A stretch of 64,000 nucleotides of DNA from an uncultured bacterium (GTDB lineage Bacteria > Verrucomicrobiota > Verrucomicrobiia > Limisphaerales > UBA11358): the NCBI GenBank assembly GCA_963723125.1, contig CAVRPQ010000001.1, positions 761,767 to 825,766 of the forward strand, given 5' to 3'. Numbering within the stretch: position 1 is the first letter of the stretch; each line of letters begins with the position of its first letter. Of the stretch, positions 4,015 through 63,820 are shown in pieces. The notes beneath the pieces were generated by a model. The model was not told the origin of the DNA. It worked only from the letters and a program-made list of their open reading frames with translations, and searched no databases. Position numbers and translations under genes: made by a program.

Positions 4015-4207
4015 CAAAATTGCCGAGCGGCCAGCGCTCTTTGATTGCGGATGGCCAGCCGGAGATTCTCGAAATCGCTGTAAAAGAAGAGTCGCAGAAA
4101 AGCTCGGCAAAAGATGTTAAGGAGTGAACAGGGCGGCTTACGGTAGTTCATCTCTAAATTGAAATCAGGGCTTGCGCATATGCGCCTGATGGATTAAAAG
4201 TGGAAAA

Positions 4208-4296
4208 GGCAATGGTGTTTGCCGACCCGCTGAAGGGTGAACTGCCCGACGATTTTAGGGCTAATGACTCCTACCGAGACAATTTGTATCGGTGGG
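4208..4296 (+). promoter_or_regulatory. structured 5' leader, copy 1 of 5 (possibly the Pedo-repair RNA motif)
   Basis: GGCAA..TTGCC hairpin, CCC/GGG hairpin, conserved core GGCTAATGACTCCTAC, 3' helix CCTACCGA/TCGGTGGG. Sigma70-like TTGCGC-17-TAAAAG ends 7 nt upstream. Confidence 0.55.
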
Positions 4297-6459: not shown

Positions 6460-7955
6460 GCATTCCCATCATTTTGCTGCTGCCGCTGATTGCGACCGTG
6501 CTTGTTTGTCTGCCCTTGAAAAAAGCGTGGGCGTCGGGCGTGACCGTCGTGGCGCCGCTGGCGACTTTGATTTTATCCGCGCGAGTCGCGTGGCTGGTTT
6601 CCGCCGGCAATTCCGTCACCGCCGATTTGAGCGCCGGCTGGCATAATTGGATTGCCGTGGACGGCTTAGGCGCGCTGATTCTGGTGTTGATTGCGTTTGT
6701 CGCAACGACGGCGGCGATTTTCTCCGTCGGCTACATGGCGCATGGAAATTTGAAAGCGGGAAAACTCCGGCTCTACTACATCAATTACAACCTGTTCGTC
6801 TTTTCCATGCTGGCCATTCCGGTTTTGGCCGAGCCGACGTTGGTATGGATTGTCGTGGAAATAACCACGTTGGCTTCCGCGCTGCTCGTCTCGTTTGAAA
6901 ATACACGCGAGGCGCTGGAGGCGGCGTGGAAATACGTCGTCCTCTCGCTCATGGGCGCCGGCATGGCACTGTTCGGCTTCCTCGTTTTGTTCGCCGCGAT
7001 GCAGGCGTCGGGCAGCAACGATGCCTACACTTGGAATAACTTGATTGCCGCCGCGCCGCTGATGCCGCCGGTCCTGCTCCAAACAGCCTTTCTGCTGATT
7101 TTAATCGGTCTCGGAACAAAAGTTGGCTTGGTCCCGATGCACACCTGGCTGCCGGATGCACACAGCCAGGCGCCGTCGCCCGTGTGCGCGCTGCTTTCGG
7201 GCATTGAAACCACCTCCATCCTTTACGTCATTCTGCGGCTGTTTCCGGTGATGCAGGCCGCTCCCCATTCCCACGCCGAAACCTGGGCCGTCGTGCTCGG
7301 TCTGATTTCGGTCGGCACCGCCGCGTTTTTGCTGCTGCAAGTGAAAGATTACAAACGCATGTTCGCTTTCTCAACGGTTGAGCACATGGGAATCATTTTA
7401 ACGGCGGTTGGCCTGGGCGCATCGGTCGCCGGTTACGCCGCGATGCAACAAATCGTCAGCCATTGCGTGACCAAATCCTTCTGCTTCTTCGCTGCCGGCG
7501 CGGTGCTGCTGGCCGTGGAAACGCGCCAAATCGTCTCGGTGCGCGGCCTGATTCGACAATCGCCTTTCGCCGGCGCTGCCCTCGTTTTCGGCGGTCTGGC
7601 GATTGCCGGTGCGCCGCCGATGGCGGTTTTCTTGAGCGAATTTTCGATTCTCAAAGCCGGACTGACGCAGAAAGAATATATCGCCACGGGGTTGCTCGCC
7701 GTTTTCATCGTCATCGCCTTTTTCGGAATCATGTTGCACGTCAACCGCATGGTGTTCGGCGCGAGTGAAAGTGAAACAGGCAAAACAAATTACGAACTCC
7801 GAACTCCGAACTCCGAACTCCAGAAATTTCATTTGCCGTTCAGTTGCCGGCTGGCGCTGATTCTGGCCGCTGTGCCGGTCCTCGTTTTCGGCTTTTACAT
7901 TCCACAACCGTTGCACGACTTGTTGACTCAAGCTGCCGCTGCTTTGACGAAATGA
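6456..7955 (+). CDS. HyfF / NuoN-NuoM-like antiporter-type subunit (EhrD-like)
   Basis: 499 aa. ATGA overlap with the upstream stop. Proton-antiporter motifs (GLVPMHTWLPDAHSQAPSPV, FSTVEHMG). Confidence 0.85.
   Translation: MSIPIILLLPLIATVLVCLPLKKAWASGVTVVAPLATLILSARVAWLVSAGNSVTADLSAGWHNWIAVDGLGALILVLIAFVATTAAIFSVGYMAHGNLKAGKLRLYYINYNLFVFSMLAIPVLAEPTLVWIVVEITTLASALLVSFENTREALEAAWKYVVLSLMGAGMALFGFLVLFAAMQASGSNDAYTWNNLIAAAPLMPPVLLQTAFLLILIGLGTKVGLVPMHTWLPDAHSQAPSPVCALLSGIETTSILYVILRLFPVMQAAPHSHAETWAVVLGLISVGTAAFLLLQVKDYKRMFAFSTVEHMGIILTAVGLGASVAGYAAMQQIVSHCVTKSFCFFAAGAVLLAVETRQIVSVRGLIRQSPFAGAALVFGGLAIAGAPPMAVFLSEFSILKAGLTQKEYIATGLLAVFIVIAFFGIMLHVNRMVFGASESETGKTNYELRTPNSELQKFHLPFSCRLALILAAVPVLVFGFYIPQPLHDLLTQAAAALTK
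7794..7821. repeat. tandem heptamer (GAACTCC)x4 inside the HyfF-like CDS
   Basis: Direct read: gaactcc gaactcc gaactcc gaactcc, translated YELRTPNSELQ. Confidence 0.9.
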
Positions 7956-7968
7956 AAAATCAATCGCT

Positions 7969-9747
7969 ATGAACCGCACCGAATTAAAGACTGAAATTGA
8001 CCAACGCTGGCCCGCCCAGGTGCAGTGCCGGTCTGAATCCGCTTCACTGTGCGAACTGGCCTGCGCCCGCGCCGCGTTGCCGGAGCTGTGCGGACGCCTT
8101 TTCCTCGAATGGAATTTCAGCTTCGCGGGATTGATCGTCGAGGAAGGCGCGAGCGAATGGCAGTTGCGTTACGCCTTTTACGGCGACGTGGCTGCGGCGC
8201 CCCCGCCGCAGAATGTGCGCGCAACGTCTTCGTCGAGCGAAACGCAAATGGCGAAATCGGGCGACGTGGCGTCGCCTTCACTGACTGTGACGAAGGCGTC
8301 GCAGCCAATCGGTTGGGTTCATGTGCTGGTCACTGCGCCGCTCGCTGAAAAGACTTTTCCGAGTATTGTCAAATTCGTTCACGCCGCCGACTGGCACGAG
8401 CGCGAAGCGGAAGATTTGTTCGGCATCCACTTTGATGGCCATCCGCGTCTCGGCGACTTCATTCTGCACGACGACGCCTGGCAGGAAAACGTCGAGCCGA
8501 TGCGCCGGCATTTCGATCCGAAGGCGGCGATGCGCCATCGCAAGCCGGATGAAGACTGGCGGCCGCATCGTATTGTTCAAGAGCCGGGCGCGTTCGTGAT
8601 GCCGGTCGGACCAAAATATTCCGGCGTCACCGAGTCGGTTCATTTTCTGCTCGAAACGGTTGGCGAAGATGTCATCCGCTCCACGCCGCGCCTGTTCTAC
8701 AAATGGCGTGCGATTGAAAAACTCGCCGAGGGCAAAACGGCGGATGAAGTTTTGTTGCTGGCCGAACGGTTTGCGGCGACCACGGCCTTTGCTCACGGAC
8801 TCGCTTATTGTCAGGCCGTTGAAAGCATTTGCGGTGCGAATGTTCCGCCGCGCTCCAAGACCCTGCGTGTGTTTCTGGCTGAACTGGAACGGCTGCGCCA
8901 GCACGCCGGCGCGATTCAAGAAATTTGCGAGTCCACCGCACTGGCTGTGGCCAACGCACACGCAGGAATTTGCGAGGAGGAATTGCTGCGCATTTCCGGC
9001 GAACTCACCGGCCATCGCTATCTGTTTGGGCTGCTTGCGCTTGGCGGATTGCTTTGCGATTTGCCGAACGATGCCTGTGCCAAGGCGCTCGAAAAATCGC
9101 AGAAGGTTTTGACGCAACTGAACGTGCTGGAAAAGCATTTGCGCGTTTCCAGCAGTTTTTTGGACCGGCTGGAAGAAGTTGGCATCGTGCCGGAACGGAC
9201 GGCGATGGTTTATGGCTTGCTAGGACCCATTGCCCGCGCGTCGGGCATCATCCGCGACCTACGCCGCGCGCAACCGTATTTGGGTTACGAAAATCTTCAG
9301 TTCGACGTGCCGGGCGAGCAGGAAGGCGACGGCTATGCGCGGTTGCGGATTCTATTCGCCGAAGCAAGACAATCGGGTCGCATCATGGAACAAGCCGTTG
9401 CCGCATTGAACAAGGTAGGGCGGGCCAGTCCTCTGCCCGCCGCCCGTCAGCCTACGCAGGACGGCGCGCACGGAGTGGCGCGCCCTACCAACTCCAAGGA
9501 CAGCGATATTTGTGCGCCGTTTCAATTTCGCGCGGGCGCGGCGTTGGGCTGGGTCGAAGCCCCGCGCGGCGGCGCATTTCATTGGGTGCGGCTGGATGGA
9601 AATGGAAAAGTCGCGCGCTATCGCATCATCGCGCCTTCCTTTGCCAACTGGCACGGGTTCCATTTGTCCGTGGAGAAGTTCGCGTTCCAGGATTTTCCCA
9701 TCATGCTCTCCACGTTTGATCTGTCCGTGTCCGAGAACGACCGATGA
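7969..9747 (+). CDS. fused NuoC/NuoD-like 'large subunit' (HycE/HyfG homolog) lacking NiFe ligands (EhrL-like)
   Basis: 592 aa, alignable by eye to HycE. AERFAATTAFAHG replaces AERVCGICGFAHS. C-terminal FDLSVSENDR replaces DPCYSCTDR. Carries two in-frame repeat insertions. Confidence 0.85.
   Translation: MNRTELKTEIDQRWPAQVQCRSESASLCELACARAALPELCGRLFLEWNFSFAGLIVEEGASEWQLRYAFYGDVAAAPPPQNVRATSSSSETQMAKSGDVASPSLTVTKASQPIGWVHVLVTAPLAEKTFPSIVKFVHAADWHEREAEDLFGIHFDGHPRLGDFILHDDAWQENVEPMRRHFDPKAAMRHRKPDEDWRPHRIVQEPGAFVMPVGPKYSGVTESVHFLLETVGEDVIRSTPRLFYKWRAIEKLAEGKTADEVLLLAERFAATTAFAHGLAYCQAVESICGANVPPRSKTLRVFLAELERLRQHAGAIQEICESTALAVANAHAGICEEELLRISGELTGHRYLFGLLALGGLLCDLPNDACAKALEKSQKVLTQLNVLEKHLRVSSSFLDRLEEVGIVPERTAMVYGLLGPIARASGIIRDLRRAQPYLGYENLQFDVPGEQEGDGYARLRILFAEARQSGRIMEQAVAALNKVGRASPLPAARQPTQDGAHGVARPTNSKDSDICAPFQFRAGAALGWVEAPRGGAFHWVRLDGNGKVARYRIIAPSFANWHGFHLSVEKFAFQDFPIMLSTFDLSVSENDR
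8190..8306. repeat. palindromic element family B, copy B1 (in frame in the large-subunit gene)
   Basis: Termini GGCTGCGGCGCC ... GGCGTCGCAGCC. 117 nt encoding VAAAPPPQNVRATSSSSETQMAKSGDVASPSLTVTKASQP. Confidence 0.7.
9414..9489. repeat. palindromic element family A, copy A1 (in frame in the large-subunit gene)
   Basis: GGTAGGGCG...CGCCCTACC termini. Encodes VGRASPLPAARQPTQDGAHGVARPTN in a region where my recalled E. coli HycE sequence shows no comparable segment. Confidence 0.85.
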
Positions 9748-10528: not shown

Positions 10529-12757
10529 ATGGATACGCCAACGCTCATTTCAATCTTTTTTGCGCTTTGCGGCGTGGGCATTTTGCTGTCGCTGGCCGCA
10601 CCCCGGTCGCGTCAAGGCAACGTGCTTGCGTGGCTGGGTTGTCTCGCATCCATTGCTTTGATTTTGGCTGGCGCAAGCGCATTGCTGGCCGGAAAGACTT
10701 TCAACCAGCCGCTATGGACGTTGCCGGGATTGGCGGCCACGCTCACGGTAAAATTGGACTTCCTCTCGGCGGTGTTCATTTTCGTCACCGGCCTGGTGCT
10801 TTTTCCAGCTTCAATTTTCGGGCGTGGCTGCGACGCCTCGTCGCAGGCGCGTGGACGCGACGCCCGCGTCGCGCGAGAAACAGAGGGCGACGAGGCGTCG
10901 CCTTTACCTTCTGCGACGAGGGCGTCGCAGCCACGCGCGTTCACGGTATTCATGTTCGGCCTCTATGCGTCCATCGCCCTGATTTTTCTGGCGGGTGATG
11001 TCGTGCCGTTCCTTCTGGCATGGGAAGTGATGTCCATACTTTGTTGGCTGCTCATCGTGTGCGCACGGGAAAAGGGAAATGACCATGCTGGTTCGGGTTA
11101 TCTGCTGCTGGCGATGGGAGAAGCGGGAACGCTCGCGGCGGCGCTTGGTTTTCTTCTGCTCGCGGTTGGAACCGGATCATTGGATTTCGGCGGAATCAGG
11201 TCGGCGGCGTCAGGCTTGGACGCTGGAGTGCGATGGGCGGTCTTCCTGCTTTCATTCTTCGGCTTCGGCGTGAAGGCCGGATTGGTCCCGGTGAATTTCT
11301 GGTTGCCGCGCGCCTATGTCGCCGCGCCGCGCGCTTTTGTGCCAGTGCTGGCGGGCGCGACGCTGAACCTCGGCCTTTATGGAATTTTGCGAGTGAACGC
11401 CGACCTCATGCCGGCGACCCACACCGCGCCGGGCTTGGTCGCGCTCATTGTCGGCACACTCTCCGCTCTGATCGGGATTCTTTATGCGACGACGGACAAT
11501 GACCTCAAAATCATGCTGGCGCACAGTTCAATTGAGAACGTGGGCATCATCGTCGCCGGCTTCGGCGCGGGAATGGTTTTTGTGGCGACCAATCATCCGG
11601 CGCTGGCGGCAATCGCCTTCGTCGCGGCGCTGTATCATTTAATCAATCACTCGCTATACAAAACTCTGCTGTTCTTCGGCGTGGGGACGGTGGAAGCACA
11701 AACCGGCACGCGCGACATGGACCGGCTCGGCGGCTTGAGCAAATGGATGCCGCTCACCTCCCTTGGATTTCTCGTCGGCGCGCTTTCCATCGCCGGGCTG
11801 CCGCCGTTCAACGGTTTTGTGAGTGAATGGCTAACGCTGCAAACCATGCTGCGCTCGGCGGAACTTTCGGCGATTGGCGCAAAATTGGTTTTCGCCCTGT
11901 GTGGCGCGGGGCTGGCATTGACGGCGGCTTTGGCAGTCACTTGTTTCGTGAAAGTTTATGCGATGAGCTTTTTGGGAATGCGACGCCTGGAGGAAGAACA
12001 GAAAGTCAACGAAGCCAAATCCGGCTCGCTCACGCCAATGGCCATCCTTGCCGCGTTGTGCCTCGCGTTTGGCGTGCTGCCAACATACATAATTCCCGCG
12101 CTGGCCCTAGCGACCAATTCCTTGGATGGCGTGAGTGCCGCCGATGCGCTTGTGCCACCATTCTTTGCTTCCAGTCCGGCGCACGGCACGTTACCGCCCG
12201 CCTTCGTTGAAGATTTTCATAATATCGGCGCCCAAGTGGGACAAAGTATTCTACCCGGACGCGGCTTGGTCGTGCTCCATCGAGGCGGCACGGAAAATCC
12301 GGTGGTCTTCGCCATGTCCACTTCCTACATGATCGTGGTTTTGCTTGTTTTGCTGCTGCTGACATACGTTATTGTCTGCCTTTGGCTGACGCGCAGCCGG
12401 AAATTGACGCGGCGGCTGCGTTGGGACGGCGGCGTGCGAAATTTGCTGCCGGAGATGACTTACACGGCGACGGGCATTTCCAATCCAGTGCGGGTGATTT
12501 TCGACGCGGTGTTCCGGCCAACAACGGTGGAGGACACGCGCGAAACCGTGGCGGAACATTTTCGCACGGCCATCATCCGTGAGAAAGAGCGCGTGCATTT
12601 GGTGGACAAGCTGGTTTTTCATCCGGTCAGGACGGTGGTGATGTGGTTTGCCGGCCGTCTGGCGCGGATGCACCACGGACGATTCAACGCCTACGCGGCG
12701 TATGCGCTGTTGACGTTGCTGGTCGTGCTGGTCGTGTTTTTATTCCAAACATCGTAA
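10529..12757 (+). CDS. NuoL/HyfB-like antiporter subunit, paralog 1 (EhrA-like)
   Basis: 742 aa. Motifs WEVMSILCWLLI, FGFGVKAGLVPVNFWLPRAY, AHSSIENVG. HyfB-type C-terminal domain RWDGGVR..LPEMTYTATG. Confidence 0.9.
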   Translation: MDTPTLISIFFALCGVGILLSLAAPRSRQGNVLAWLGCLASIALILAGASALLAGKTFNQPLWTLPGLAATLTVKLDFLSAVFIFVTGLVLFPASIFGRGCDASSQARGRDARVARETEGDEASPLPSATRASQPRAFTVFMFGLYASIALIFLAGDVVPFLLAWEVMSILCWLLIVCAREKGNDHAGSGYLLLAMGEAGTLAAALGFLLLAVGTGSLDFGGIRSAASGLDAGVRWAVFLLSFFGFGVKAGLVPVNFWLPRAYVAAPRAFVPVLAGATLNLGLYGILRVNADLMPATHTAPGLVALIVGTLSALIGILYATTDNDLKIMLAHSSIENVGIIVAGFGAGMVFVATNHPALAAIAFVAALYHLINHSLYKTLLFFGVGTVEAQTGTRDMDRLGGLSKWMPLTSLGFLVGALSIAGLPPFNGFVSEWLTLQTMLRSAELSAIGAKLVFALCGAGLALTAALAVTCFVKVYAMSFLGMRRLEEEQKVNEAKSGSLTPMAILAALCLAFGVLPTYIIPALALATNSLDGVSAADALVPPFFASSPAHGTLPPAFVEDFHNIGAQVGQSILPGRGLVVLHRGGTENPVVFAMSTSYMIVVLLVLLLLTYVIVCLWLTRSRKLTRRLRWDGGVRNLLPEMTYTATGISNPVRVIFDAVFRPTTVEDTRETVAEHFRTAIIREKERVHLVDKLVFHPVRTVVMWFAGRLARMHHGRFNAYAAYALLTLLVVLVVFLFQTS
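10826..10932. repeat. palindromic element family B, copy B2 (in frame in paralog 1)
   Basis: GGCTGCGACGCC ... GGCGTCGCAGCC. Encodes [36 protein letters not shown]. Absent at this position in paralogs 2 and 3. Confidence 0.85.
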
Positions 12758-13025: not shown

Positions 13026-15227
13026 ATGAGCGCGGATGGATTGCTGCTCACGCTGATTTTCGCGCTGTGCTTTGCCGGCGCGCTGGCGGGAATTTTTGTC
13101 CCCGACCGGCGCAATCCGGCGCTGCTGGCCTGGACCGGATCGCTGGCGGCGCTCCTGACGTTGTGGGTCAGCGGCAATGTCCTGTGGTCGGGGCAAGTGT
13201 TCCAAGCCGAACTCTGGACGATTCGTGGTTTGGGAACGCTGACCGTTTCAATTGACCGTCTCTCGGCGCTCTTCCTGGCAGTGGCGGCGCTGGTGGTTCT
13301 GACCAGTTCGATTTTCTCGGCGGGTTATTTGAAACGCTATTCCGGCCACTACAACCTGAAGGCGCACAACGCCTGGTATCTGCTGCTGTTCGCTTCCATC
13401 GTGCTCATCCTGATTGCGAACGACGCGCTGTTGTTCCTGCTGGCGTGGGAGGCGATGTCCATTTTGAGCTATCTGCTCGTCAATTTCGAGCACCGTCGCG
13501 CCGAAACCAGCCGCGCGAGTTATCTCATGCTGGTAATGGGCGAAGCGGGCTTCATCGCGGTCGCGCTGGTGTTCCTGTTTCTCGCGGTGAAAACCGGCTC
13601 GCTGGATTTTTCTGCGTTCAGAACGGCGGGCGCTAACCTCGGCGGCTTTGCCCGCTGGACAATTTTTCTGCTGACGTTCTTTGGTTTCGGCGTCAAAGCC
13701 GGGTTGGTGCCGGTCAACACCTGGTTGCCGCGCGCCCACCCTGCCGCGCCTGCGAACGTCTCGGCAATTTTGTCCGGCACGATTTTGAACCTGGGACTTT
13801 ACGGTATTGTCCGCGTAAATCTCGACCTCGTGTCCGTCACGCAAAACGGAATGATTGGCGCGGGCGTGGTGGTGCTCATCATTGGGACAATTTCCGCACT
13901 GGTCGGAATCCTCTATGCGACCACCGAGAACGACCTCAAGGCCATGCTCGCACACAGCTCGATTGAAAACATCGGCATCGTCACCGCCGGCCTCGGCGCG
14001 GGCATGATTTTCACCTGCTACAACAAACCAGCACTGGCGGGCATCGCTTTCATCGCCGCGTTTTATCACATGATCAACCACTCGGTGTATAAATCGCTGC
14101 TGTTTTTTGGCGCGGGAACCGTGGACGACCGCGCCGGCACGCGCGATTTGAACAAACTCGGCGGCCTGATTCGCGCAATGCCGTGGACGGCGGGTGCGTT
14201 TTTGGTGGGCACGCTGGCGATTTCAGCGTTGCCGCCGTTCAACGGGTTCGTCAGCGAATGGCTCACGCTGCAAACGATGCTGCGCTCGGCGGAACTGCCC
14301 TCGACGCTCGTGAAATTGGTTTTCGCGTTATGTGGCGCGGGGCTGGCGCTCACGGCGGCACTGGCCGTGACGTGTTTCGTCAAGGCGTTTGCGATGGGCT
14401 TTCTCGGCATGTCGCGTTCAGAAGAAGCCGCCAAAGCCGTGGAAGCGAAAACTCCATCAATCGCGCCGATGATTCTTTTGGCATCGCTCTGTGTGCTGCT
14501 CGGCGTGCTGCCGACATACATAATTCCGGCGTTGGACACGGCGGTTCGTGGCTGCGACGCCTCGTCGCAGAGCGTGGGTGCGACGGGGGCGTCGCAGCCA
14601 CCAAATGCCGCCGACGCGCTGGTGCCGCCTTTCTTCGCCTCGAACCCGGCGCACAACACGTTGCCAACCGCGCTCGTGGAAGACTTTCATAATATCGGCG
14701 CGCAAGTTGGACAGAATGTATTGCCCGGACGCGGCTTGGTGGTGCTCCATCGCGGCGGCACGGAAAATCCGGTCGTTTTTGCCATGTCCACCTCCTACAT
14801 GGTCATCGTCTTAGGCGCATTGCTATTGGGGGTTTACGTTGTCATCCGCTTGTGGCTGACGCGAAATCGAAAGTTGGCTCGGCGGACACGCTGGGATGGC
14901 GGGGTGCGGCGTCTGTTGCCGGAAATGACTTACACGGGCACCGGCTTTTCCAATCCGGTGCGCGTGATTTTTGACGCGGTGTTTCGCCCAACCACGGTGG
15001 AGGACACGCGCGAAACCGTGGCGGAACATTTCCGCACCGCCATCCGGCGCGAGCGGGTGGCGGTGCATATCGTGGATCGCTGGTTCATCCAGCCGACCAA
15101 AAATGCCGTGATGGGATTGGCCCGTGGTCTGGCGGTGATGCACCACGGGCGCATCAACGCCTACGCCGGCTACGTGTTGCTGGCGCTGCTGGCGGTCGTG
15201 CTGTTTTTGCTGATACTGACATCGTGA
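13026..15227 (+). CDS. NuoL/HyfB-like antiporter subunit, paralog 2
   Basis: Start taken at ATG 13026 (MSADGLLL), just past the repeat element. Collinear with paralogs 1 and 3. Confidence 0.9.
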   Translation: MSADGLLLTLIFALCFAGALAGIFVPDRRNPALLAWTGSLAALLTLWVSGNVLWSGQVFQAELWTIRGLGTLTVSIDRLSALFLAVAALVVLTSSIFSAGYLKRYSGHYNLKAHNAWYLLLFASIVLILIANDALLFLLAWEAMSILSYLLVNFEHRRAETSRASYLMLVMGEAGFIAVALVFLFLAVKTGSLDFSAFRTAGANLGGFARWTIFLLTFFGFGVKAGLVPVNTWLPRAHPAAPANVSAILSGTILNLGLYGIVRVNLDLVSVTQNGMIGAGVVVLIIGTISALVGILYATTENDLKAMLAHSSIENIGIVTAGLGAGMIFTCYNKPALAGIAFIAAFYHMINHSVYKSLLFFGAGTVDDRAGTRDLNKLGGLIRAMPWTAGAFLVGTLAISALPPFNGFVSEWLTLQTMLRSAELPSTLVKLVFALCGAGLALTAALAVTCFVKAFAMGFLGMSRSEEAAKAVEAKTPSIAPMILLASLCVLLGVLPTYIIPALDTAVRGCDASSQSVGATGASQPPNAADALVPPFFASNPAHNTLPTALVEDFHNIGAQVGQNVLPGRGLVVLHRGGTENPVVFAMSTSYMVIVLGALLLGVYVVIRLWLTRNRKLARRTRWDGGVRRLLPEMTYTGTGFSNPVRVIFDAVFRPTTVEDTRETVAEHFRTAIRRERVAVHIVDRWFIQPTKNAVMGLARGLAVMHHGRINAYAGYVLLALLAVVLFLLILTS
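14550..14599. repeat. palindromic element family B, short copy B3 (in frame in paralog 2)
   Basis: ggctgcgacgcctcgtcgcagagcgtgggtgcgacgggggcgtcgcagcc, encoding GCDASSQSVGATGASQP. Paralogs 1 and 3 lack it at the same site. Confidence 0.85.
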
Positions 15228-17447: not shown

Positions 17448-17471
17448 AACCAAAACTTGAAACCGAAAACT

Positions 17472-18827
17472 ATGAGTAAAATTGAAAACATAAACGCACA
17501 GGAAATTCTGGATTCGCGCGGCAACCCGACCGTCATGGTCACGCTCACGCTCGAGAATGGCATTACCACGTCGGCCTGCGTGCCGTCCGGCGCGTCCACC
17601 GGCATTCGCGAAGCCGTGGAACTCCGCGACGGCGACGCCAAACGCTACGGCGGCAAAGGCGTGCTCAATGCAGTCGCCAACGTCAACAAAATCATCGCGC
17701 CAAAACTCAAGGGCAAATCGCCGCAGGCCCATAAGGAAATTGACGAATTGATGATCAAATTGGATGGCACGGAAAACAAATCCAAACTCGGCGCGAACGC
17801 CATTCTGGGCGTTTCGATGGCCGTTTGCCGCGCGGCGGCGCTGGATTCCGACACCCCGCTTTACGCTTACATCTCCAAGTTGCATGGTAGGGCGCGTCAC
17901 TCCGTGCGCGCCGAACGAGGTGGTCACGAAAGCGGCGCGCAGGGGACTGACGCGCCCTACCTTTTGCCCGCGCCGCAAATGAACGTGCTCAATGGCGGCG
18001 CGCACGCGACCAACAACGTGGATTTTCAGGAATTCATGCTGTTCCCCATCGGCGCGCCGAGTTTTGCCGAGGCCTTGCGCTATGCGGCGGAAACGTTTCA
18101 TACGCTCAAAAAAATTCTGCAAAAGCGCGGACTGGTTTCCGCCGTCGGCGACGAGGGCGGTTTCGCGCCGAGCCTCAAAACGAACGACGAAGCGGTGGAG
18201 TTGATTCTTGAAGCCATTAACGCTGCCGGTTACAAACCGGGGAAGGACATCGCACTCGCCATTGATCCGGCCGCCAGCGAGTTTTACGACAGCGGCGCTT
18301 ACGTCTTCAAAAAATCCGACAACTCGCGCAAATCGCCAGCCGAAATGGTCGAACTGTATCGCGGCTGGCTGGACAAATATCCCATTCTCTCGCTCGAAGA
18401 CGGCATGGGTGAGGAAGATAACGACGGTTGGAAAGCGTTGACCGCCGCTCTTGGCAAAAAACGGCAACTCGTCGGCGACGACAATTTCGTCACCAACCCG
18501 AAAATTTTTGCCGAAGGCATTCGTGACGGCATTGCCAACGCGATTCTCATCAAATTGAACCAAATCGGCACGGTCAGCGAGACGCTCGAAACGGTGGCGA
18601 TGGCGCAAAAGGCCGGTTACGGCACGGTGATTTCACATCGTTTGGGCGAAACCGAGGATGCCTTTATCGCGGATTTCGCCGTTGGCACCGGCGCGGGCCA
18701 GATCAAGACCGGCTCGCTTTGCCGGTCGGAACGAATTGCAAAATACAATCGCCTGCTCGCCATTGAACGCGAGTTGGGCAAAAAATCGCGCTACGGTGGC
18801 GCGGCGTTTAATGCCCGTTGGAAGTGA
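17472..18827 (+). CDS. eno: enolase (phosphopyruvate hydratase) carrying an in-frame repeat insertion
   Basis: [21 protein letters not shown]..., [44 protein letters not shown]. Confidence 0.95.
17886..17961. repeat. palindromic element family A, copy A2 (reverse orientation, in frame in eno)
   Basis: ggtagggcgcgtcactccgtgcgcgcc...gcgccctacc, encoding [25 protein letters not shown] between YISKLH and [13 protein letters not shown]. Confidence 0.9.
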
Positions 18828-18999
18828 TAGTATGATTTGGGAGCGCCGCGACTTGGATCCACTAGGCAAACTCCATTACCCGCGGGAGGGGCCGGGAGAA
18901 ATCCGGTCACCACATTCAAGGCGTGTGCGCTCCCTTTAACCGCTCTGTAGAGTGCCGGGATGGTTGTTATTCGTCCCAAAGGATGGTAAAGTTTTAGCA

Positions 19000-19085
19000 G
19001 GCAATGAAGTTTGCCCGTCCGCCTTTGCGGCGAACCGCCTTATGGCTAATGACTTCTACCGAAACTGAACCAGTATCGGTAACGA
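19000..19085 (+). promoter_or_regulatory. structured 5' leader, copy 2
   Basis: GGCAA/TTGCC, CCGC/GCGG, core GGCTAATGACTTCTAC, TACCGA/TCGGTA helix ending just before ATG 19089. TTGTTA-17-TAAAGT promoter upstream. Confidence 0.6.
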
Positions 19086-19088
19086 GTC

Positions 19089-20786
19089 ATGCAAACAACC
19101 AGTTCAGACGAGCGCCTCGAACTGAAGGCGTGTTCAGCGGGCCAGCAGGGGGAAGCGGCGATTCGCGTGATCGCTCCTTCCAATAGGGGCTTCCAAAGTA
19201 TTCTTTTTGAATCTCCCGGCTCTGGAAACCTCGGAGATAACGTTGAGCCGCCGGCCTTTTTTCGGGATTTGAACCTCAATCAGATCGTGGACGCCATCAC
19301 AGCGGGCTGCGAAGAATACAATCTCAAGCCATTCTTTTACACCCGCCCGAATGATCTTGCGGCGATTATTTACCGGCAGGAAGTCATGCGCGACCTTGAA
19401 ACCGCACCGCTGTTCGAGGGCATCAAATCGTTCTCAAACCAAACGCACACGATGCGCAATCATCTCGCCGCTGCGAAAAATTGGCACTACAAGTTCTCGA
19501 AGGGCCGGTGGTTTCTCGATGCTGCGGAAATCTATTGTGCGGCGGTTGTGGAATTGCGGCGCATTCTCGAACACGCCAGTCCCACTTCGCGCGGCCTGCA
19601 CGCCTTTCGGGAATATCTGGCGCAGTATGTTGAATCCGACCGTTTCAAAACACTATGCCGAGAAGCGGAAAATGTGAAATCCGGTTTGTCGGCCATCCGC
19701 TATAGTGTGCGCATCAAGGGCGGCAGCGTTACGGCGAGTCCTTATGATTCCGAGATTGATTACACCGCCGCCGTCGAGGAAACGTTCGCCAAATTCAAGC
19801 AAGGTGCGGTGAAGGATTATCGCTGCAAGTCCACGTCGCTACCGGGCATGAATCACGTCGAAGCCGGAATTCTTGACCGTGTAGCACATTTGAATCCCCA
19901 AGCGTTTCGCGCGCTGGACGACTTTTGCGCGAAGCACGAAAATTTCCTCGAAAAACCAATTGCCGATTTCGACCGCGAAATTCAGTTTTACGTCGCGTAT
20001 TTGGAGTATGCGGAAACCTTCAAACGCGCCGGACTGAAATTCTGTTATCCGCAAGTATCAGACACGCGCAAGGAAGTTTGCAACCGCGATGGATTCGACC
20101 TGGCGTTGGCCGGCAAACTTTTAGGTAGGGCGGGCAGTCCTCTGCCCGCCGTCCCGCAAGGCGAAACCAACGAACGGCGCGCACGGAGTGACGCGCCCTA
20201 CCGCATCGTTTGCAATGATTTCTCTTTGAGTGGGCCGGAACGGATTTTCGTCGTCACGGGACCGAATCAAGGCGGCAAGACGACGTTTGCGCGCACGTTC
20301 GGACAATTGCATTATTTGGCGAGCCTCGGCTGTCCCGTCCCCGGCTCGGAAGCGCGACTTTTTCTCTTCGACCGCCTGTTCACCCATTTTGAGCGCGAGG
20401 AGGACATCAGAACGTTACGCGGCAAGTTGCAAGATGATCTGGTTAGGATTCATCACGTTCTTGAACAAGCCACGCCGAACAGCATCGTCATCATCAACGA
20501 AATTTTTTCCTCCACGAGCGTCAAGGACGGCGTTCATCTGGGCAAGAAAGTGTTGGAACGTCTGTCTCAACTTGATGTGTTGGGCGTTTGCGTGACCTTT
20601 CTGGATGAACTCGCCTCCTTCAATGAAAAGACCGTGAGCGTGGTCGCTGCCGTCGCGCCGGAAAATCCCACGCAGCGCACTTACAAGGTTGAGCGAAGGC
20701 TGGCGGACGGACTGGCCTATGCGCTGGCGATTGCCGAGAAATACCGGCTCACCTACGACCAGCTGAAAGCGAGATTAAAGCCGTGA
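19089..20786 (+). CDS. MutS-family ATPase (domain V type, no recognisable mismatch-binding or Smr domain), paralog A
   Basis: [20 protein letters not shown] (Walker A), [13 protein letters not shown] (Walker B region), VTFLDEL. Confidence 0.8.
20124..20202. repeat. palindromic element family A, copy A3 (in frame in MutS-like A)
   Basis: ggtagggcgggcagtcctctgcccgcc...gacgcgccctacc, encoding [26 protein letters not shown]. Confidence 0.9.
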
Positions 20787-22519
20787 AAGCGCACCTGCTG
20801 TATCGCGACCGCGATTTCGATCTGCAACAGAAATTGCCGGCGAACGAACCGGCGCTGACGCAAGATTTGGAACTGAACACGCTGTTCCGCGCAATGGCCG
20901 GCGGTGACGAATTTCTGTTTCACGTGGCAAAGCGAACGGTCTTGTCGGGTTTGGAAAATGATCTTGCAACCATCCTCTATCGCCAAGCCATCCTCAAGGA
21001 TTGCCTGCGGAACGAAGCCGCCGTAAGGGAAATTTACGACATCGCCGTTGAAGCTATTGAAACCAAACGGACGCATTGGCTGGGTGTTTTCAGCCGCTAT
21101 CCAAGTGGCATCTTGTATGAAGCGGTGAAATTGCTACAAATGTTGATGGGCGTGCTGGCCAAGCTGAAGCGCGTGGCCGATGAGGCCGGTAGGGCGCGCA
21201 GTCCTCTGAGCGCCGTGAACGCTGAGGGACAAACTTCAATTTCCGAACGGCGCGCACGGAGTGACGCGCCCTACCAATTCGAGTCGGAAGGTTTCAAAAC
21301 CTTCTTCGAGATGCTTAAGGCGGAATTGGCGGATGATTATTTTGCCGCCGTCGAAGCGCAACTCAAGGAACTGGAATTCAAGGATGGCGTGTTGGTGAGC
21401 GCGGAATTGGGCGAAGGCAATCAGGGTGTCAATTATGTCCTGCGCAAATCGCTGCGCCCCAGGCCGGGTTGGTTCCAGCGGATTTTTTTACGAAATTCCT
21501 CCGCCTACACCTTCCACATTGACCCACGCGATGACGGCGGTTTCCGTGCTTTGTCGGAATTGCAGGACCGGGGAATCAATTTGGCGGCAAATGCCGTCGC
21601 CCAAGCCGCCGACCACATTACAAGTTTCTTCGTCATGTTGCGGACGGAACTGGCGTTTTACATCGGCTGTCTGAATTTGCAGCATCAGCTTGCGTGGAAA
21701 GGGATGCCGGTTTGCTTTCCGGTTCCCGTGCCGTCCGGCACTCGCAAGCAAACCTGTGTCGGGTTGCGCGACGCCTGTCTTGCGCTGGTTTGTGGCCGCG
21801 ACGCCTCGGCGCGCGAAAAAAAGACCGTGCCATCTGGTTTGCCCATCGGCACAGGTGACGCGGCGTCACCTTTACCTTCTGCGACTAGGGCGTCGCAGCC
21901 ACCTGTCGTCGGCAATGACTTGGCTGCCGATGGAAAGAACCTCATCATCATCACCGGCGCTAATCAAGGCGGCAAATCCACCTTCTTGCGTGGCGTGGGC
22001 CTGGCGCAATTGATGATGCAATGCGGCATGTTCGTCGCTGCCGATTCTTTCAGCGCCGACCTATGCCGCAGCCTGTTCACGCATTACAAGCGCGAGGAGG
22101 ACGCTACGATGACAAGCGGGAAGTTCGATGAGGAACTCGCCCGCATGAGCGGCATTGCCGATGCGCTGACGTCCACCCTCCGCAGTGCTACGGAGGACGG
22201 GTCGGATTCGCTGCTGCTGTTCAACGAGTCCTTCGCCGCGACCAACGAACGGGAAGGTTCGGAGATTGCCCGGCAGATTGTCCGCGCGCTGCTGGAAACG
22301 CGTGTGAAAATCTTTTTTGTGACGCATCTCTACGAATTCGCCCGAACCTTTTGGGAAGATAAAATGGACAGTGCCGTTTTTCTGCGCGCCGAAAGGCAAG
22401 CCGATGGGCAAAGAACTTTCAAGTTGCTGCCGGGCGAGCCGTTGGAAACCAGTTTTGGCGCGGACTTGTATCAAGAGGTTTTTGAAAGTGGCAATGAGCG
22501 CAAAGTTTTGACTCCATGA
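20783..22519 (+). CDS. MutS-family ATPase (domain V type), paralog B
   Basis: GTGA overlap (GTG start) with the upstream stop. [48 protein letters not shown]. Confidence 0.8.
21188..21275. repeat. palindromic element family A, copy A4 (in frame in MutS-like B)
   Basis: ggtagggcgcgcagtcctctgagcgcc...gacgcgccctacc, encoding [29 protein letters not shown]. Confidence 0.9.
21794..21900. repeat. palindromic element family B, copy B4 (in frame in MutS-like B)
   Basis: ggccgcgacgcc ... ggcgtcgcagcc, encoding [36 protein letters not shown]. The right half is near-identical to B2. Confidence 0.85.
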
Positions 22520-28759: not shown

Positions 28760-28828
28760 ATTTCATTTTTAAGATATTGCTGGTTTTGCGGCGCTTGCCA
28801 TTGAAGCAGCGGATGCTATATTGAATCC

Positions 28829-28911
28829 GGCAATGGAATCTGCCTCCCGGCTCGCGGGAAAACGCCCTCCGGCTAATGACTCCTACCAAAACAAAATGAA
28901 ATGGTAGTGGG
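28829..28911 (+). promoter_or_regulatory. structured 5' leader, copy 3
   Basis: GGCA/TGCC, CCCG/CGGG, core GGCTAATGACTCCTAC, 3' arm GGTAGTGGG ending 2 nt before ATG 28914. TTGCCA-16-TATATT promoter at 28795-28822. Confidence 0.65.
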
Positions 28912-30821: not shown

Positions 30822-32462
30822 ATGAATCAGGTGGATGGCATTCTCAACCGCGTCTCCGGTTTGGCCGGGGAATTGAAGCTGGCCAATCTCCAGCCGCAAA
30901 TCGCCGCGTGCCGGAAACAATTCAACGGCAGCAGCCACGGCATTGACGTGGCGGTATTTGGCCGGTTCAAAGCAGGTAAAAGTTCGTTCCTCAACCATTT
31001 GACCGGACGCGCCGTGCTGCCCATCGGCGTCGTGCCGCTTACGGCGGTCATCACGCGGCTGCGCTTTGGGCCTGCCGAGAAGGTCACGGTGCGTTTCCTG
31101 AACGGCAGCGCCAAAACCATTCCGCTTGGAGAAATCGGTCTCTACGTTGGCGAGAAGGAAAATCCGAACAATCAAAAGCAGGTTGGGTCAGTCGAAGTCG
31201 AACTGCCCGCACTCAAGCTGCTGGAGCCGCTGGAATTCGTGGACACGCCGGGCCTCGGCAGCGCATTCACGCACAACACCGAAACCACCTTCCAATGGCT
31301 GCCCTATGTTGGCGCCGCGCTCGTGGCGGTCAGTTGCGACGCGCCATTGTCGGAGCGCGACTTGGCGCTGCTGGACGAATTGCGCCGTCACACGCCGAAA
31401 ATCGTTTTGCTGTTGACGAAAGCAGATTTGCTGAACGAACCGCAGCGCGCCGAAGTGTTGTCGTTTGTCCGCCAGCAACTCCGCCAGAAATTGGAAACGG
31501 ACTTGCCGGTTTTTTTCTATTCCGTGAAGCCGGAATGCACGACTCTGAAGACCGAACTCGAACAAAATCTTTTATCACCGCTTATCCGCAATCGCGGCGA
31601 AGCCGCTGACCAGATTGGACGGCACAAACTGCTCTCGCTGGTGGGGCGGACGCTGGATTATCTGCGTGTCGCGCTGGCTGCGGCGACGCAGGCGGAATCT
31701 TCGCGCGCGGCGTTGCGCGAAAAACTGGCGGACGAACGCCGCCAGTTCGATTTGTTCCGCGAAGAACTTCAGGTGCTATCGCGCCAGTGGTCGGCCCAGG
31801 CGCTGAATCAGTCGCTGCTCAAATTGAAACCGCGACAAGAAGCCTTACAGGAACAAATCACAACCGGGTTGCAGGCGCAGCTTCCGCATTGGCCGTCGCG
31901 ATTGCCGCCGCTGTTGCGAACGTGGCGTGAATGGTTGCAAAACATCCTGAACCATGAACTCACCGATATTTCGAGCGCGGAAAAGACGACCTTCCTTGAA
32001 CCGCTAAAGCGCGTGGAACAACACCTGATGCGGACGCTTCAAGCCCTTCAGCATCGGCTCGCCGGACATGTGCAAGCTGCGCTCGGCGTCACGCTCGCGC
32101 CACACGATATTGTCCTCGAAGTGCCCGAACCTGCCGCGCCGCCGATTGACATCGGTTATGTGGACGCGGCATTCAGCCTCATCAGCCCGCTCATTCCGAT
32201 GAGTTTATTCAGTCCGGCGATTGAACGGTCGCTGCTGCGGAAATCGCGCTGGGAAACCGAGAAAAATCTTTCGCGCCTGGCATCCAACTGGCGCGACCGC
32301 GTAGCCAAAGGCATCAGCGAGTTGACCCGGCAGGCCGAGCAGCAGGCGCTGGACGAACTGGCTGCGCTCGAACACACGCTGAAGCAAACCGCCTCCAAAG
32401 CGCCCGAATTGAAACGAGCCATTGAGGAGTTGGAACAGTTCCAGGAGCGATTACGTGGATGA
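30822..32462 (+). CDS. dynamin-like GTPase, paralog 2
   Basis: G1 GRFKAGKSSFLN, G3 FVDTPGLGS, G4 LTKADL. The GTPase domain is collinear with paralog 1 (23644-25665). Confidence 0.8.
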   Translation: MNQVDGILNRVSGLAGELKLANLQPQIAACRKQFNGSSHGIDVAVFGRFKAGKSSFLNHLTGRAVLPIGVVPLTAVITRLRFGPAEKVTVRFLNGSAKTIPLGEIGLYVGEKENPNNQKQVGSVEVELPALKLLEPLEFVDTPGLGSAFTHNTETTFQWLPYVGAALVAVSCDAPLSERDLALLDELRRHTPKIVLLLTKADLLNEPQRAEVLSFVRQQLRQKLETDLPVFFYSVKPECTTLKTELEQNLLSPLIRNRGEAADQIGRHKLLSLVGRTLDYLRVALAAATQAESSRAALREKLADERRQFDLFREELQVLSRQWSAQALNQSLLKLKPRQEALQEQITTGLQAQLPHWPSRLPPLLRTWREWLQNILNHELTDISSAEKTTFLEPLKRVEQHLMRTLQALQHRLAGHVQAALGVTLAPHDIVLEVPEPAAPPIDIGYVDAAFSLISPLIPMSLFSPAIERSLLRKSRWETEKNLSRLASNWRDRVAKGISELTRQAEQQALDELAALEHTLKQTASKAPELKRAIEELEQFQERLRG

Positions 32463-32542
32463 TTTACGATTTACAATTTGCGATTTACGCGGTTCAGATG
32501 AAACCGGCGCGCTCGTAAATCGTAAATCTGAAATCGTAAATC
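32461..32542. repeat. long hairpin built from heptamer arrays (GATTTAC-type)
   Basis: Left arm gatttacgatttacaatttgcgatttacg, right arm cgtaaatcgtaaatctgaaatcgtaaatc, loop of about 24 nt. Begins at the stop codon of the GTPase gene. Confidence 0.8.
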
Positions 32543-33360: not shown

Positions 33361-33492
33361 ACACAGCAATCTTTTATTTAGAACTGTGTCCTTAATTTCA
33401 GAAAGTTTAACAATAAATATCAACGTCACTGCTAGTTGTCGAAATCCGACGAGAATTGTTGTCGTCGAGACAAAAAAGCTATGTTGTTAGTA

Positions 33493-33584
33493 GGCAATGG
33501 ATGTCTGCCCATCCCGGCCAACGGGTAAAGCGCCTTCCGGCTAATGACTCCTACTGAACAAAGACAATTTGTCCCGGTAGCGAG
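33493..33584 (+). promoter_or_regulatory. structured 5' leader, copy 4
   Basis: GGCA/TGCC, CCCG/CGGG, core GGCTAATGACTCCTAC, GGTAGCGAG arm ending 2 nt before ATG 33587. TTGTTG-18-TATGTT promoter upstream. Confidence 0.6.
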
Positions 33585-40008: not shown

Positions 40009-40064
40009 GGTAGGGCGGGCAGTCCTCTGCCAGCCGCGGCGCGCACGGAGTGGCGCGCCCTACC
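40009..40064. repeat. palindromic element family A, short intergenic copy A5
   Basis: ggtagggcgggcagtcctctgccagccgcggcgcgcacggagtggcgcgccctacc, between the divergent rpsB and protease genes. Confidence 0.9.
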
Positions 40065-63720: not shown

Positions 63721-63775
63721 GTTGGCAAAATACCCCAAGAGAACGTGATTTGGCAACGCCGACTCGTCCCTGCCT

Positions 63776-63803
63776 CCCTCTCCCCGTCCAAGCGGGGAGA
63801 GGG
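63776..63803. repeat. GC-rich hairpin CCCTCTCCCCG-N6-CGGGGAGAGGG
   Basis: Perfect 11-bp stem read directly, just upstream of the TPR gene start on the minus strand. Confidence 0.8.
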
Positions 63804-63820
63804 GGCAAGCATGGCGGCGC

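Follow-up and report, generated by a model that had tools for sequence, protein, structure and literature searches.

A probable REPIN-type family of GTAG-tagged REP doublets carried in frame within enolase and other genes of Verrucomicrobiota

Element copies and host genes in the window

The window, a 64-kb stretch of DNA, contains five copies of a short repeated element. Four of these lie within the following genes.

7969..9747, + strand: NuoC/NuoD-fusion gene (hydrogenase large-subunit-like), 592 aa versus 525 aa in the relative L120; Pfam Complex1_30kDa+49kDa fusion
17457..18827, + strand: enolase (eno), likely start ATG 17472, giving 451 aa; empty orthologues have 432-434 aa; the window's enolase shows the variant S391L
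19089..20786, + strand: MutS domain-V protein A (MutS-like A), 565 aa; Pfam MutS_V
20783..22519, + strand: MutS domain-V protein B (MutS-like B), 578 aa versus 514 aa in L120; Pfam MutS_V

The copies themselves, with their component arms, are arranged as follows.

9414..9489, + strand: copy 1, 76 nt, REP doublet within the NuoCD-like gene, in frame; the B-type arm (9414-9441) carries a 1-nt insertion, and the A'-type arm (9463-9489) follows after the spacer
17886..17961, - strand: copy 2, 76 nt, in frame in enolase with a 25-residue reading and oriented opposite to the other copies; an A-type arm (17886-17912) and a spacer (17913-17933) are followed by a degenerate B/A-like arm that ends at 17961
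20124..20202, + strand: copy 3, 79 nt, in frame in MutS-like A with a 26-residue reading; B arm 20124-20150, spacer, A' arm 20176-20202
21188..21275, + strand: copy 4, 88 nt, in frame in MutS-like B with a 29-residue reading; B-variant arm 21188-21214 (compensated stem), spacer, A' arm 21249-21275
40009..40064, + strand: copy 5, 56 nt with a 2-nt spacer, in the rpsB 5' leader (rpsB is on the minus strand); B arm 40009-40035, A' arm 40038-40064

An earlier note on this DNA had proposed five copies at these positions, and an exact search for the 9-mer GGTAGGGCG confirmed them, as its 10 occurrences in the window all fall within five inverted pairs. The 22-nt inner hairpin GGCGCGCACGGAGTGNCGCGCC has 5 matches in the window against 0.01 expected by chance. 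A fuzzy search of the window revealed no solitary or degenerate arms beyond the five pairs. None of the four genic copies introduces a stop, which leaves the host frame open as had been reported, and the enolase copy is indeed oriented opposite to the others. Termini reading GRA...APY, previously ascribed to every genic copy, are present in three of the four; the NuoCD-like (Ehr) copy lacks them because it uses the other open phase and is translated as V-GRASPLPAARQPTQDGAHGVARPT. Copy 5 had been called intergenic. It is outside the conserved S2 coding part, yet it sits inside an open ORF, about 14 codons (~40 nt) upstream of the conserved S2 N-terminus.

In the syntenic relative L120, whose enolase is 92% identical, each of the four genic sites is empty. 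Comparison with such empty relatives indicates that the insertions were not clean but, in net terms, took the place of a few native codons. The view that the inserts add residues holds for the net gain, 17-19 aa in enolase, but 3-8 native loop codons are replaced in the process. The broader claim of a dispersed, palindromic mobile family residing, in either orientation and without breaking the frame, within enolase and three other genes is supported, with relatives empty.

Hairpin architecture and genomic distribution

Each copy is composed of two GTAG-tagged 22-nt hairpins, inverted and heads-out, on either side of a variable spacer of 2-60 nt. The inverted layout agrees with the original description of a palindromic element; however, the copies are not single palindromes, each being built from two different hairpin modules. 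In both modules a loop of 3-5 nt caps a stem some 9 bp long, with type A defined as GGCGCG(T)CAC-TCC-GTGCGCGCC and type B as GGCGGGCAG-TCCT-CTGCCCGCC. The sequence (G)GTAG opens 10 of the 10 window arms, and the arms of the fetched loci likewise. Window and fetched loci together gave 101 elements of ≤130 nt, including 32 with A/A' and 55 with B/A' arm pairs. Single-strand folding of the elements yielded z-scores of -2.7 to -7.0. The stems also display two-sided compensatory swaps, such as pair 10-23 of the B arm, where 18 distinct variants have G-C and 7 have C-G.

At the element ends, only the frame holding the TAG of GTAG is closed, so that a copy usually offers four open frames out of six. 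Target-site duplications were sought at the 5 window copies and in 181 arm flanks, and none was seen; flank preference is weak, with about 76% A/T at position -1, beside GGTAG. The in-frame copies fall into all three classes of length modulo 3 (class 0, n=12; class 1, n=7; class 2, n=1). Nothing was concluded from this about how precise the insertion is, since the host may have supplied the outermost G and C, which makes every class explicable. Rfam detected no family over the elements, nor any intron, intein or other RNA family, and a literature search for the exact REP head returned irrelevant matches only.

The family is widespread. Exact matches to an arm 28-mer come from at least 119 contigs, belonging to about 80 species-representative Verrucomicrobiota assemblies; in these loci arm identity is by construction, because the exact 28-mer was the query. 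Sequences bearing the family include the closed chromosomes OY969763.1 (6.03 Mb) and OY969416.1 and the 4.64-Mb contig CAWDIX010000002.1. The carrier clade comprises Limisphaerales/Pedosphaera-like bacteria, Udaeobacter and other Verrucomicrobiota. The window has 5 copies in 64 kb; elsewhere, a single 8-kb locus can hold several, as it does in some of the genomes.

Genic residence was judged by codon-usage frame classifiers together with Pfam validation. These replaced an ORF-span test with a minimum of 60 codons to either side, which was too noisy in GC-rich DNA and chose the antisense frame for eno. With a home-made codon-usage classifier, 30 of 90 copies were in frame within genes, compared to 48% of random segments, corresponding to a 0.7-fold depletion of copies in gene interiors. 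A stricter classifier placed 20 copies in frame and 0 out of frame. Out-of-frame genic copies numbered 0, against 1.8% of random controls. Outside the window, all 18 of the 18 hosts tested were genuine Pfam-supported genes, among them Gln/GluRS, LeuRS, MetH, MnmE, PrmC and HrpA, and the host genes of the element are functionally unrelated to each other. The predominantly extragenic location usual for REPs was not seen in the window, where four of the five copies are in frame in genes.

A candidate transposase and related repeat systems

In three related loci (L063, L009 and L098), an ORF with an HUH...Y signature sits between element copies. The sole PDB relative of this HUH/Tyr protein is 4ER8, E. 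coli TnpA_REP, matched with E=8.6e-6 from a single sequence and E=1.8e-9 with a profile, over a region that starts ahead of the HUH motif and extends to the catalytic-Tyr motif. The NCBIfam model NF047646, 'REP-associated tyrosine transposase', scored 86.6 bits (cutoff 80) on one protein and 67.3 bits on another, and Pfam Y1_Tnp remained sub-threshold at 17.9 bits (cutoff 23). There are ~1480 homologues, many of them named RayT by JGI. To survey the flanks, 80 metagenomic loci were picked by protein similarity and the REP head was sought within 250 nt of the RAYT gene. Among assessable loci, the head was found upstream in 64 of 66, downstream in 67 of 68, and on both sides in 51 of 54. The window's A and B 27-mers recur as the flanking arms, and RAYT protein identity across these loci is 58-82%. 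In related genomes the putative cognate RAYT is flanked by the same REPs. The 64-kb window itself contains no RAYT gene detectable by tblastn and motif search. The catalytic motifs are conserved in this protein, which would bind and cleave its REP as single-stranded DNA.

Together, these features indicate that family A is very probably a REPIN-type element, a GTAG REP doublet served by a RAYT and carried in frame inside working genes. The element, having no coding capacity of its own, would probably be mobilised in trans by the small RAYT, a TnpA_REP-like HUH/Tyr single-strand DNA transposase, by extension of the E. coli TnpA_REP paradigm. In the carrier clade, coding sequence receives copies about as readily as other DNA does. 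Copies persist where the net change is a multiple of three, where they are read in an open frame, and where the site is a tolerant loop or interdomain linker. The insert may then be translated, giving a peptide 19-39 aa long and rich in Gly/Arg/Ala/Ser/Pro, for example GRAGSPLPA... or GRARHSVRA...DAPY, which would be a passenger. The arms are kept constant at the nucleotide level, be it by a RAYT- or hairpin-related constraint or by gene conversion from other copies. For transposition, RAYT-REP binding and insert translation alike, we infer these steps from sequence.

The closest known parallel lies in the same phylum. The earlier note knew of no equivalent description for this lineage, which was not borne out. 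Intragenic GTAG-REP dimers encoding 20-30 aa have been described in the Verrucomicrobium Opitutus terrae, where they are most numerous (Di Nocera, De Gregorio and Rocco 2013, PMC3733652), in families designated GTAG-17 to GTAG-20. Like family A, they have a GTAG (or GTGG) tag with a short GC-rich hairpin and form dimers with variable spacers. Many copies lie wholly within known genes, encoding, for example, VGPALAAGREQRARLPAAGERPPY; hosts include HrpA, tRNA synthetases and repair genes, and RAYT genes are REP-flanked (PMC3733652). The rule of extragenic location for REPs was already broken in O. terrae. The insert peptides differ: those given as text in that study (VGPALAAG..., GTGVPPV and HGRHARAT) include none with an initial GRA, a comparison of the families made by peptide text only. 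These peptides set family A apart and indirectly suggest that it may be a sequence family distinct from GTAG-17 to GTAG-20. The carriers also differ, O. terrae belonging to Opitutales and family A to Limisphaerales/Pedosphaera-like bacteria and Udaeobacter.

The REPIN-RAYT systems of Pseudomonas and Enterobacteria (Bertels and Rainey 2011, PMC3116915; 4ER8) share with family A the inverted doublets and the capacity to fold into a long hairpin. Further likenesses are the REP-flanked small HUH/Tyr gene, the lack of target duplication, and long persistence at orthologous positions. In contrast to those systems, which are overwhelmingly extragenic, about a third of family A copies are genic and in frame. 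The RAYT of family A is also divergent, being sub-threshold for Pfam Y1_Tnp and reaching E=1.8e-9 with 4ER8 with a profile only. Abundant REPs have been tied only to RAYT Groups 2 and 3 (Bertels et al. 2017, bioRxiv 10.1101/119735).

The resemblance to Rickettsia palindromic elements (RPEs) raised in the earlier note stands as a parallel in behaviour, as both are palindromic repeats in frame in functional genes that add a peptide at tolerant sites, but not as identity, since family A is a GTAG REP doublet with a RAYT. RPE-4 and RPE-6 are classed as CGTC-tagged, and RAYTs are linked to GTAG repeats and not to CGTC ones (PMC3733652). Family A is GTAG-tagged, has no sequence relation to RPEs and resides in another host phylum, Verrucomicrobiota. 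Classical MITEs (Correia/NEMIS, RUP, ERIC) are likewise small, non-autonomous, dispersed, bounded by inverted ends and occasionally intragenic. Their terminal inverted repeats derive from DDE-type IS elements, and they make target-site duplications. Family A makes no such duplication, each of its ends is itself a hairpin, and its partner would be a Y1 HUH transposase.

An orphan MITE or RPE-like family, one with no REP/RAYT relation that merely resembles the Rickettsia elements, is very unlikely. Residence in frame in functional genes does parallel RPEs, and the window is without a transposase. However, the GTAG tag and hairpin depart from the CGTC reported for RPE-4 and RPE-6, the same arms occur on both sides of the RAYT gene in 51 of 54 loci, and target-site duplications were not found.

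What is new here is the occurrence in about 80 species-level genomes and the quantified in-frame share, along with an orthologous insert retained across lineages and the synonymous-site invariance of its arms. REPIN-RAYT work has concentrated mainly on Gammaproteobacteria, and the systems are regarded as extragenic. The present family broadens that view, being widespread and conserved in a different phylum and residing to a large extent in frame within genes. Because the underlying phenomenon has been on record since 2013, the result extends what is known and is not the discovery of a new kind. For annotation, hundreds of Verrucomicrobiota proteins (enolase, aminoacyl-tRNA synthetases, MetH, MnmE) are expected to bear 19-39-residue REP-encoded inserts. 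Such inserts split domain matches and inflate apparent protein diversity; recognition of the family permits their masking or modelling.

The enolase insertion and alternative explanations

The enolase insert lies between Pfam domains Enolase_N (9-139) and Enolase_C (168-452) and directly precedes LPxPxMN(V/I)LNGG, in agreement with its earlier placement in the loop before the conserved MMN(V/I)LNGG segment. Mapping by sequence on solved enolases positions it between the consecutive residues 136 and 137 of Coxiella enolase 3TQP, and the solved enolases contain no segment like the insert. An AlphaFold model of the filled enolase, built from a shallow alignment (mean pLDDT 56), was left unused.

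The insert is orthologous in five lineages with 81-86% protein identity. The same filled enolase is encoded in three independent NCBI assemblies, and four more distant assemblies (JGI, NCBI, Logan) carry the same insert. This sharing indicates that the insertion is old and was inherited or exchanged. The enolase copy is common to several lineages and interleaved with empty alleles. Across the five filled alleles, variable third-codon positions number 0 of 18 in the arms, 6 of 7 in the spacer and 298 of 421 (71%) in the rest of the gene, and the contrast between arms and gene is significant (Fisher p=6e-10). Third-position divergence of the gene across these lineages is about 40%. The invariance of the arm third positions indicates that the arms evolve as a DNA or RNA element and not as protein. 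Enolase thus offers a natural experiment in which nucleotide-level maintenance of the arms is separable from protein-level selection.

The earlier note had treated the same segment in orthologous enolases of unrelated taxa as a sign of ancestral sequence, and this holds in part, with five lineages sharing it. That sharing is the case for host-ancestral or convergent low-complexity loops instead of inserted elements, but it is not proof of host ancestry, because closer relatives are empty, at all four positions, and the arms are identical to copies in unrelated genes. With nearly identical 27-nt arms also in non-coding DNA, solved enolases without the segment, and invariant arm third positions beside a variable spacer and gene, ancestral loops are hardly credible. 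Neither does assembly error, the other doubt raised earlier, fit the data. The sequences come from MAGs, and repeats can mislead assemblers into chimeras or binning artefacts. Yet at least seven independent assemblies, drawn from four sources, contain one and the same filled enolase allele, the reading frames are undisturbed and the flanking sequence runs colinear with that of the syntenic relative, leaving an artefact next to no probability. Removal or bypass of the element, by mRNA splicing, protein excision or ribosome skipping, would yield host proteins without the insert, and the strong hairpin potential might favour it. Frame and stops would then be irrelevant, which disfavours removal, given 20-30 in-frame, stop-free copies and 0 out-of-frame genic copies against 1.8% of random controls. 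The lack of any detected intron, intein or other RNA family over the elements also argues against it, and we consider removal highly improbable.

A different question is why the arms of the REPIN-type element are kept. They might serve the RAYT system or the host, for instance in RAYT docking, in mRNA stability or translation pausing through their structure, or in recombination, rather than being tolerated junk homogenised by gene conversion. The invariant third positions in lineages ~40% diverged at such sites, the compensatory stem changes, and the flanking of RAYTs of 58-82% identity by the same arms across metagenomic loci are all consistent with use. However, gene conversion among many copies yields the same pattern, host genes are functionally unrelated, close relatives manage without inserts, and decay is visible in the most divergent enolase allele, whose right arm has 4-6 differences over 28 nt. 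We regard arm use as unlikely. A wider joint reading, possible but on the doubtful side, is that coding sequence is an ordinary REPIN habitat, that intragenic arms are actively maintained, and that short-patch recombination swaps filled and empty alleles between lineages. On this reading, intragenic arms would be live REPs in essential genes, kept until hosts reach ~40% third-position divergence, with upkeep through RAYT-linked selection or templated conversion. Intragenic REPINs would then form a persistent, self-maintaining sequence layer in proteins and a systematic source of new surface loops.

Two other accounts of the enolase site were rejected. Five separate insertions do not fit, as site, orientation, length and spacer are all homologous, and the empty loop is not a decayed element, since a homologous loop, G-x-K-A-G/D-A-P/S-Y, is common to the empty alleles of both clades. 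The corresponding position of Coxiella enolase reads GPF. With the empty loops homologous and GPF in Coxiella, P-(Y/F) of the enolase loop is ancestral. The sequence GACGCTCCCTAC in an empty enolase allele resembles GACGCGCCCTAC at the element terminus, which hints that integration in this case may have been guided by a native site mimicking the REP head.

Hairpin structure and the partner transposase

Family A copies, described in the earlier note as palindromic, are not single palindromes; each is composed of two hairpin modules. Each end carries GGTAG followed by its own 22-nt hairpin, with module A reading GGCGCG(T)CAC-TCC-GTGCGCGCC and module B reading GGCGGGCAG-TCCT-CTGCCCGCC. The two REP heads face outward and are separated by a variable spacer. 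Single-strand folding of the window copies was much stronger than that of shuffled controls (z-scores −2.7 to −7.0). Among 101 elements, the arm combinations included A/A' (32) and B/A' (55), and the stem positions of the arms displayed compensatory swaps on both sides. Taken together, a GTAG tag, a short hairpin rich in GC and an inverted doublet arrangement define REP, BIME and REPIN elements.

REP-associated tyrosine transposases (RAYTs) were sought with an E. coli RayT query, whose sequence matches the alignment in the PMC3733652 supplement, and with a HUH...Y motif search. A 155-aa ORF with HUH...Y is positioned between family A copies in three genomes. Its sole PDB relative is 4ER8, E. 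coli TnpA_REP (E=8.6e-6 with a single sequence, 1.8e-9 with a 15-sequence profile), and the profile alignment, residues 17 to 143, takes in both the HUH and the catalytic-Tyr motifs. NCBIfam NF047646, 'REP-associated tyrosine transposase', gave 86.6 bits for one protein (cutoff 80) and 67.3 bits for another. Pfam Y1_Tnp stayed below threshold. The ORF has ~1480 homologues, many named RayT by JGI. We collected 80 metagenomic RAYT loci through the similarity of their proteins, so that the sampling did not depend on the repeat. The REP head GTAGGGCG[CG]G was present within 250 nt upstream of the RAYT gene at 64 of 66 loci, downstream at 67 of 68 and on both sides at 51 of 54, and the A and B arms of the window copies recur in the flanking doublets. 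The 64-kb window itself encodes no RAYT gene. The earlier reading of a mobile palindromic family residing in frame stands, but family A is a REP doublet with a RAYT and not an orphan resembling the Rickettsia palindromic elements (RPEs).

A different, more divergent RAYT-like ORF on L113, a contig from a related genome (3398-4267), is associated with another REP type (TGTAGGCCGGGT...), so at least one such genome has more than one RAYT/REP pair.

Residence in coding sequence

The window contains the exact 9-mer GGTAGGGCG ten times, exclusively as five inverted pairs, which confirms the five copies reported earlier:

9414-9489, 76 nt, in a NuoCD-like gene
17886-17961, 76 nt, in the enolase gene
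20124-20202, 79 nt, in MutS-like A
21188-21275, 88 nt, in MutS-like B
40009-40064, 56 nt, in the rpsB 5' leader

The 22-nt inner motif has five matches in the window compared to 0.01 expected by chance, and a fuzzy search of the window found no additional solitary or degenerate arms. By Pfam, the four ORFs that host copies encode a Complex1_30kDa+49kDa fusion (NuoCD- or hydrogenase-large-subunit-like), an enolase and two MutS domain-V proteins. As the earlier note had it, all four genic copies are stop-free in the host frame and the one in enolase has the opposite orientation to the rest. The GRA...APY ends hold for three of the four; the NuoCD copy uses the other open phase (V-GRA...RPT). The fifth copy, thought to be intergenic, lies inside a long minus-strand open frame, yet upstream of conserved S2. 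Its position in the rpsB 5' leader follows from the Pfam S2 domain, which begins at residue 103 of the open frame, and from the conserved N-terminus of S2 (VLSIGIKELLESGVHFGH), which starts ~14 codons past the element.

A syntenic relative (L120/L121, 92% enolase identity) is empty at all four genic positions. A few different codons stand in place of each insert, indicating that the inserts are net replacements in short variable loops. No target-site duplication was seen at family A copies, and the flanks show only a weak A/T preference.

A codon-usage frame classifier trained on window genes recovered the true frame in 107 of 116 300-nt segments, a measure of self-consistency on its training genes. 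With the strict classifier, 20 of 88 copies were genic and in frame and none was genic and out of phase, compared to 30.5% and 1.8%, respectively, for random controls. The sensitive classifier, correct for all five window copies, placed 30 of 90 in frame versus 48% of random segments (ratio 0.70). A REPIN family nearly indifferent to coding sequence is one main point of interest. All 18 hosts tested outside the window proved to be genuine genes, strongly supported by Pfam; they include Gln/Glu-tRNA synthetase, LeuRS, MetH, MnmE, PrmC, an HrpA-like helicase, a radical-SAM enzyme and two Ser/Thr kinases. The element usually occupies an alignment gap within a domain or an interdomain linker, and recurrently encodes GRAGSPLPA... 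and VGRV(T/S)P... peptides with APY or RPT ends. The complete absence of out-of-frame genic copies argues, at the sequence level, that the inserts would be translated and not removed.

In one MAG (L084), two paralogous Ser/Thr protein kinases each carry a 66-nt family A copy (1600-1665 and 6843-6908) at the equivalent kinase-domain position, encoding GRARHS(V/E)RAEHAQNEDGVTRPT, which suggests that the gene was duplicated after insertion.

The arm 28-mer is found verbatim in at least 119 contigs, with ~80 species-representative assemblies among the matches listed; nearly all contigs among these are labelled Verrucomicrobiota (Limisphaerales, Pedosphaera, subdivision 3, Udaeobacter). Several family A contigs (among L010, L011, L017, L025-L027, L037, L041, L055 and others) are from MAG bins assigned to Bifidobacterium, Klebsiella, Akkermansia muciniphila, Hyphomicrobiales or Sulfotelmatobacter; these assignments are probably wrong, or the bins contaminated.

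The enolase insertion

The enolase insert is located between Pfam Enolase_N and Enolase_C, in agreement with the site first proposed. Mapped onto the solved structure 3TQP (Coxiella enolase), it separates neighbouring residues 136 and 137 within the connector ahead of the first barrel strand. Five lineages (81-86% protein identity) have the insert at an identical site, orientation and length, with homologous spacers whose divergence tracks the host gene, indicating one orthologous insertion. A neighbour-joining tree interleaves filled (f) and empty (e) alleles, (window,(L120e,L124e)) versus (L127f,(L122f,(L126f,(L125f,L123e)))), and the dip in divergence between the window and L125 is limited to ~100-150 nt around the element. 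Empty alleles of either clade have one homologous native loop, G-x-K-A-G/D-A-P/S-Y, matched in Coxiella by GPF, which makes the empty loop the ancestral form. We infer that allelic exchange or sorting best explains the filled/empty pattern. One empty allele has GACGCTCCCTAC where the element terminus has GACGCGCCCTAC, a likeness that could reflect integration microhomology or selection keeping the conserved P-Y.

Comparison of the five filled alleles shows variation at 0 of 18 third-codon positions in the arms, 6 of 7 in the spacer and 298 of 421 in the remaining gene (Fisher p=6e-10); the right arm's few changes are at codon positions 1-2. Judged from these alleles, the arms thus evolve under nucleotide-level maintenance, through either structure- or RAYT-related selection or gene conversion, and not as protein. 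The interest of family A lies mainly in this maintenance of intragenic arms.

Over the aligned region, the window enolase shows 100% identity to that of one Limisphaerales MAG. At codon 391 of the 451-aa protein (18642-18644) it reads SHRLGETED (TTG) versus the conserved SHRSGETED; Ser is present in near-identical enolases from three independent NCBI assemblies (P0001-P0003) and in all 17 aligned homologues. It may represent a sequencing error, a rare variant or an inactivating substitution.

Precedents and other repeats of the window

The REP superfamilies tagged GTAG and CGTC were defined by Di Nocera, De Gregorio and Rocco (2013), who recorded GTAG repeats in the PVC superphylum, described GTAG-REP dimers inside genes that code for 20-30 aa and are most abundant in the Verrucomicrobium Opitutus terrae, and classed the R. 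conorii RPE-4/-6 repeats as CGTC-tagged. Their additional file gives ~70 entries for O. terrae (e.g., VGPALAAGREQRARLPAAGERPPY), HrpA being among the hosts (PMC3733652). The phylum thus has a precedent, contrary to the supposed lack of an equivalent description. Family A behaves like RPEs, yet is of the GTAG-REP/RAYT kind; its closest likeness is to the O. terrae GTAG-REPs, from which it differs in sequence, as judged from the insert peptides, and in host order. Only RAYT Groups 2 and 3 were linked to abundant REPs by Bertels et al. (2017), whose main text leaves Verrucomicrobia unmentioned (bioRxiv 10.1101/119735). A literature search for the exact REP head found no occurrence in a relevant context, and no Rfam family covers the family A copies. 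New for family A are its breadth (~80 species-level genomes among the matches listed), a RAYT linkage backed by statistics, the proportion of copies in frame and the invariance of synonymous sites.

A second intragenic palindromic family (~70-120 nt; termini GTGGCTGCG(A/G)CGCC ... GGCGTCGCAGCCA(C)) is a GTGG-tagged relative of GTAG REPs:

8194-8310, in the NuoCD-like gene
10819-10939 and 14539-14610, in two Proton_antipo_M genes
21794-21904, in MutS-like B

The copies at 8194-8310 and 21794-21904 are in frame, missing from syntenic L120 and strongly folded (−68 and −61 kcal/mol), and one peptide ends ...GDVASPSLTVTKASQPI. MutS-like B has a further 10-aa in-frame insertion versus L120 at residues ~446-455 (approximately 22120-22150), not obviously palindromic. 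A third palindromic type with GTGG heads (GGTGGGGCGAGG...CCTCGCCCCACC) clusters at 63815-63987, at the 5' end of minus-strand ORF 61867-63840 and just past its start, and is reminiscent of the GTGG variants recorded for the GTAG-20 family of O. terrae.

Four fluoride riboswitches (Rfam RF01734, 38.6-53.4 bits) fall within 30 kb, one between enolase and MutS-like A:

4199-4280, plus strand
18991-19065, plus strand
28820-28892, plus strand
33484-33560, plus strand

With enolase, a DUF190 protein, the MutS-like genes and, in relatives, Usp, the window resembles a gene neighbourhood for fluoride response. An AT-rich inverted/tandem repeat (GATTTACGATTTACAATTTGCGATTTACG and its complement), unlike the GC-rich REPs, is positioned at a gene junction (32461-32542).
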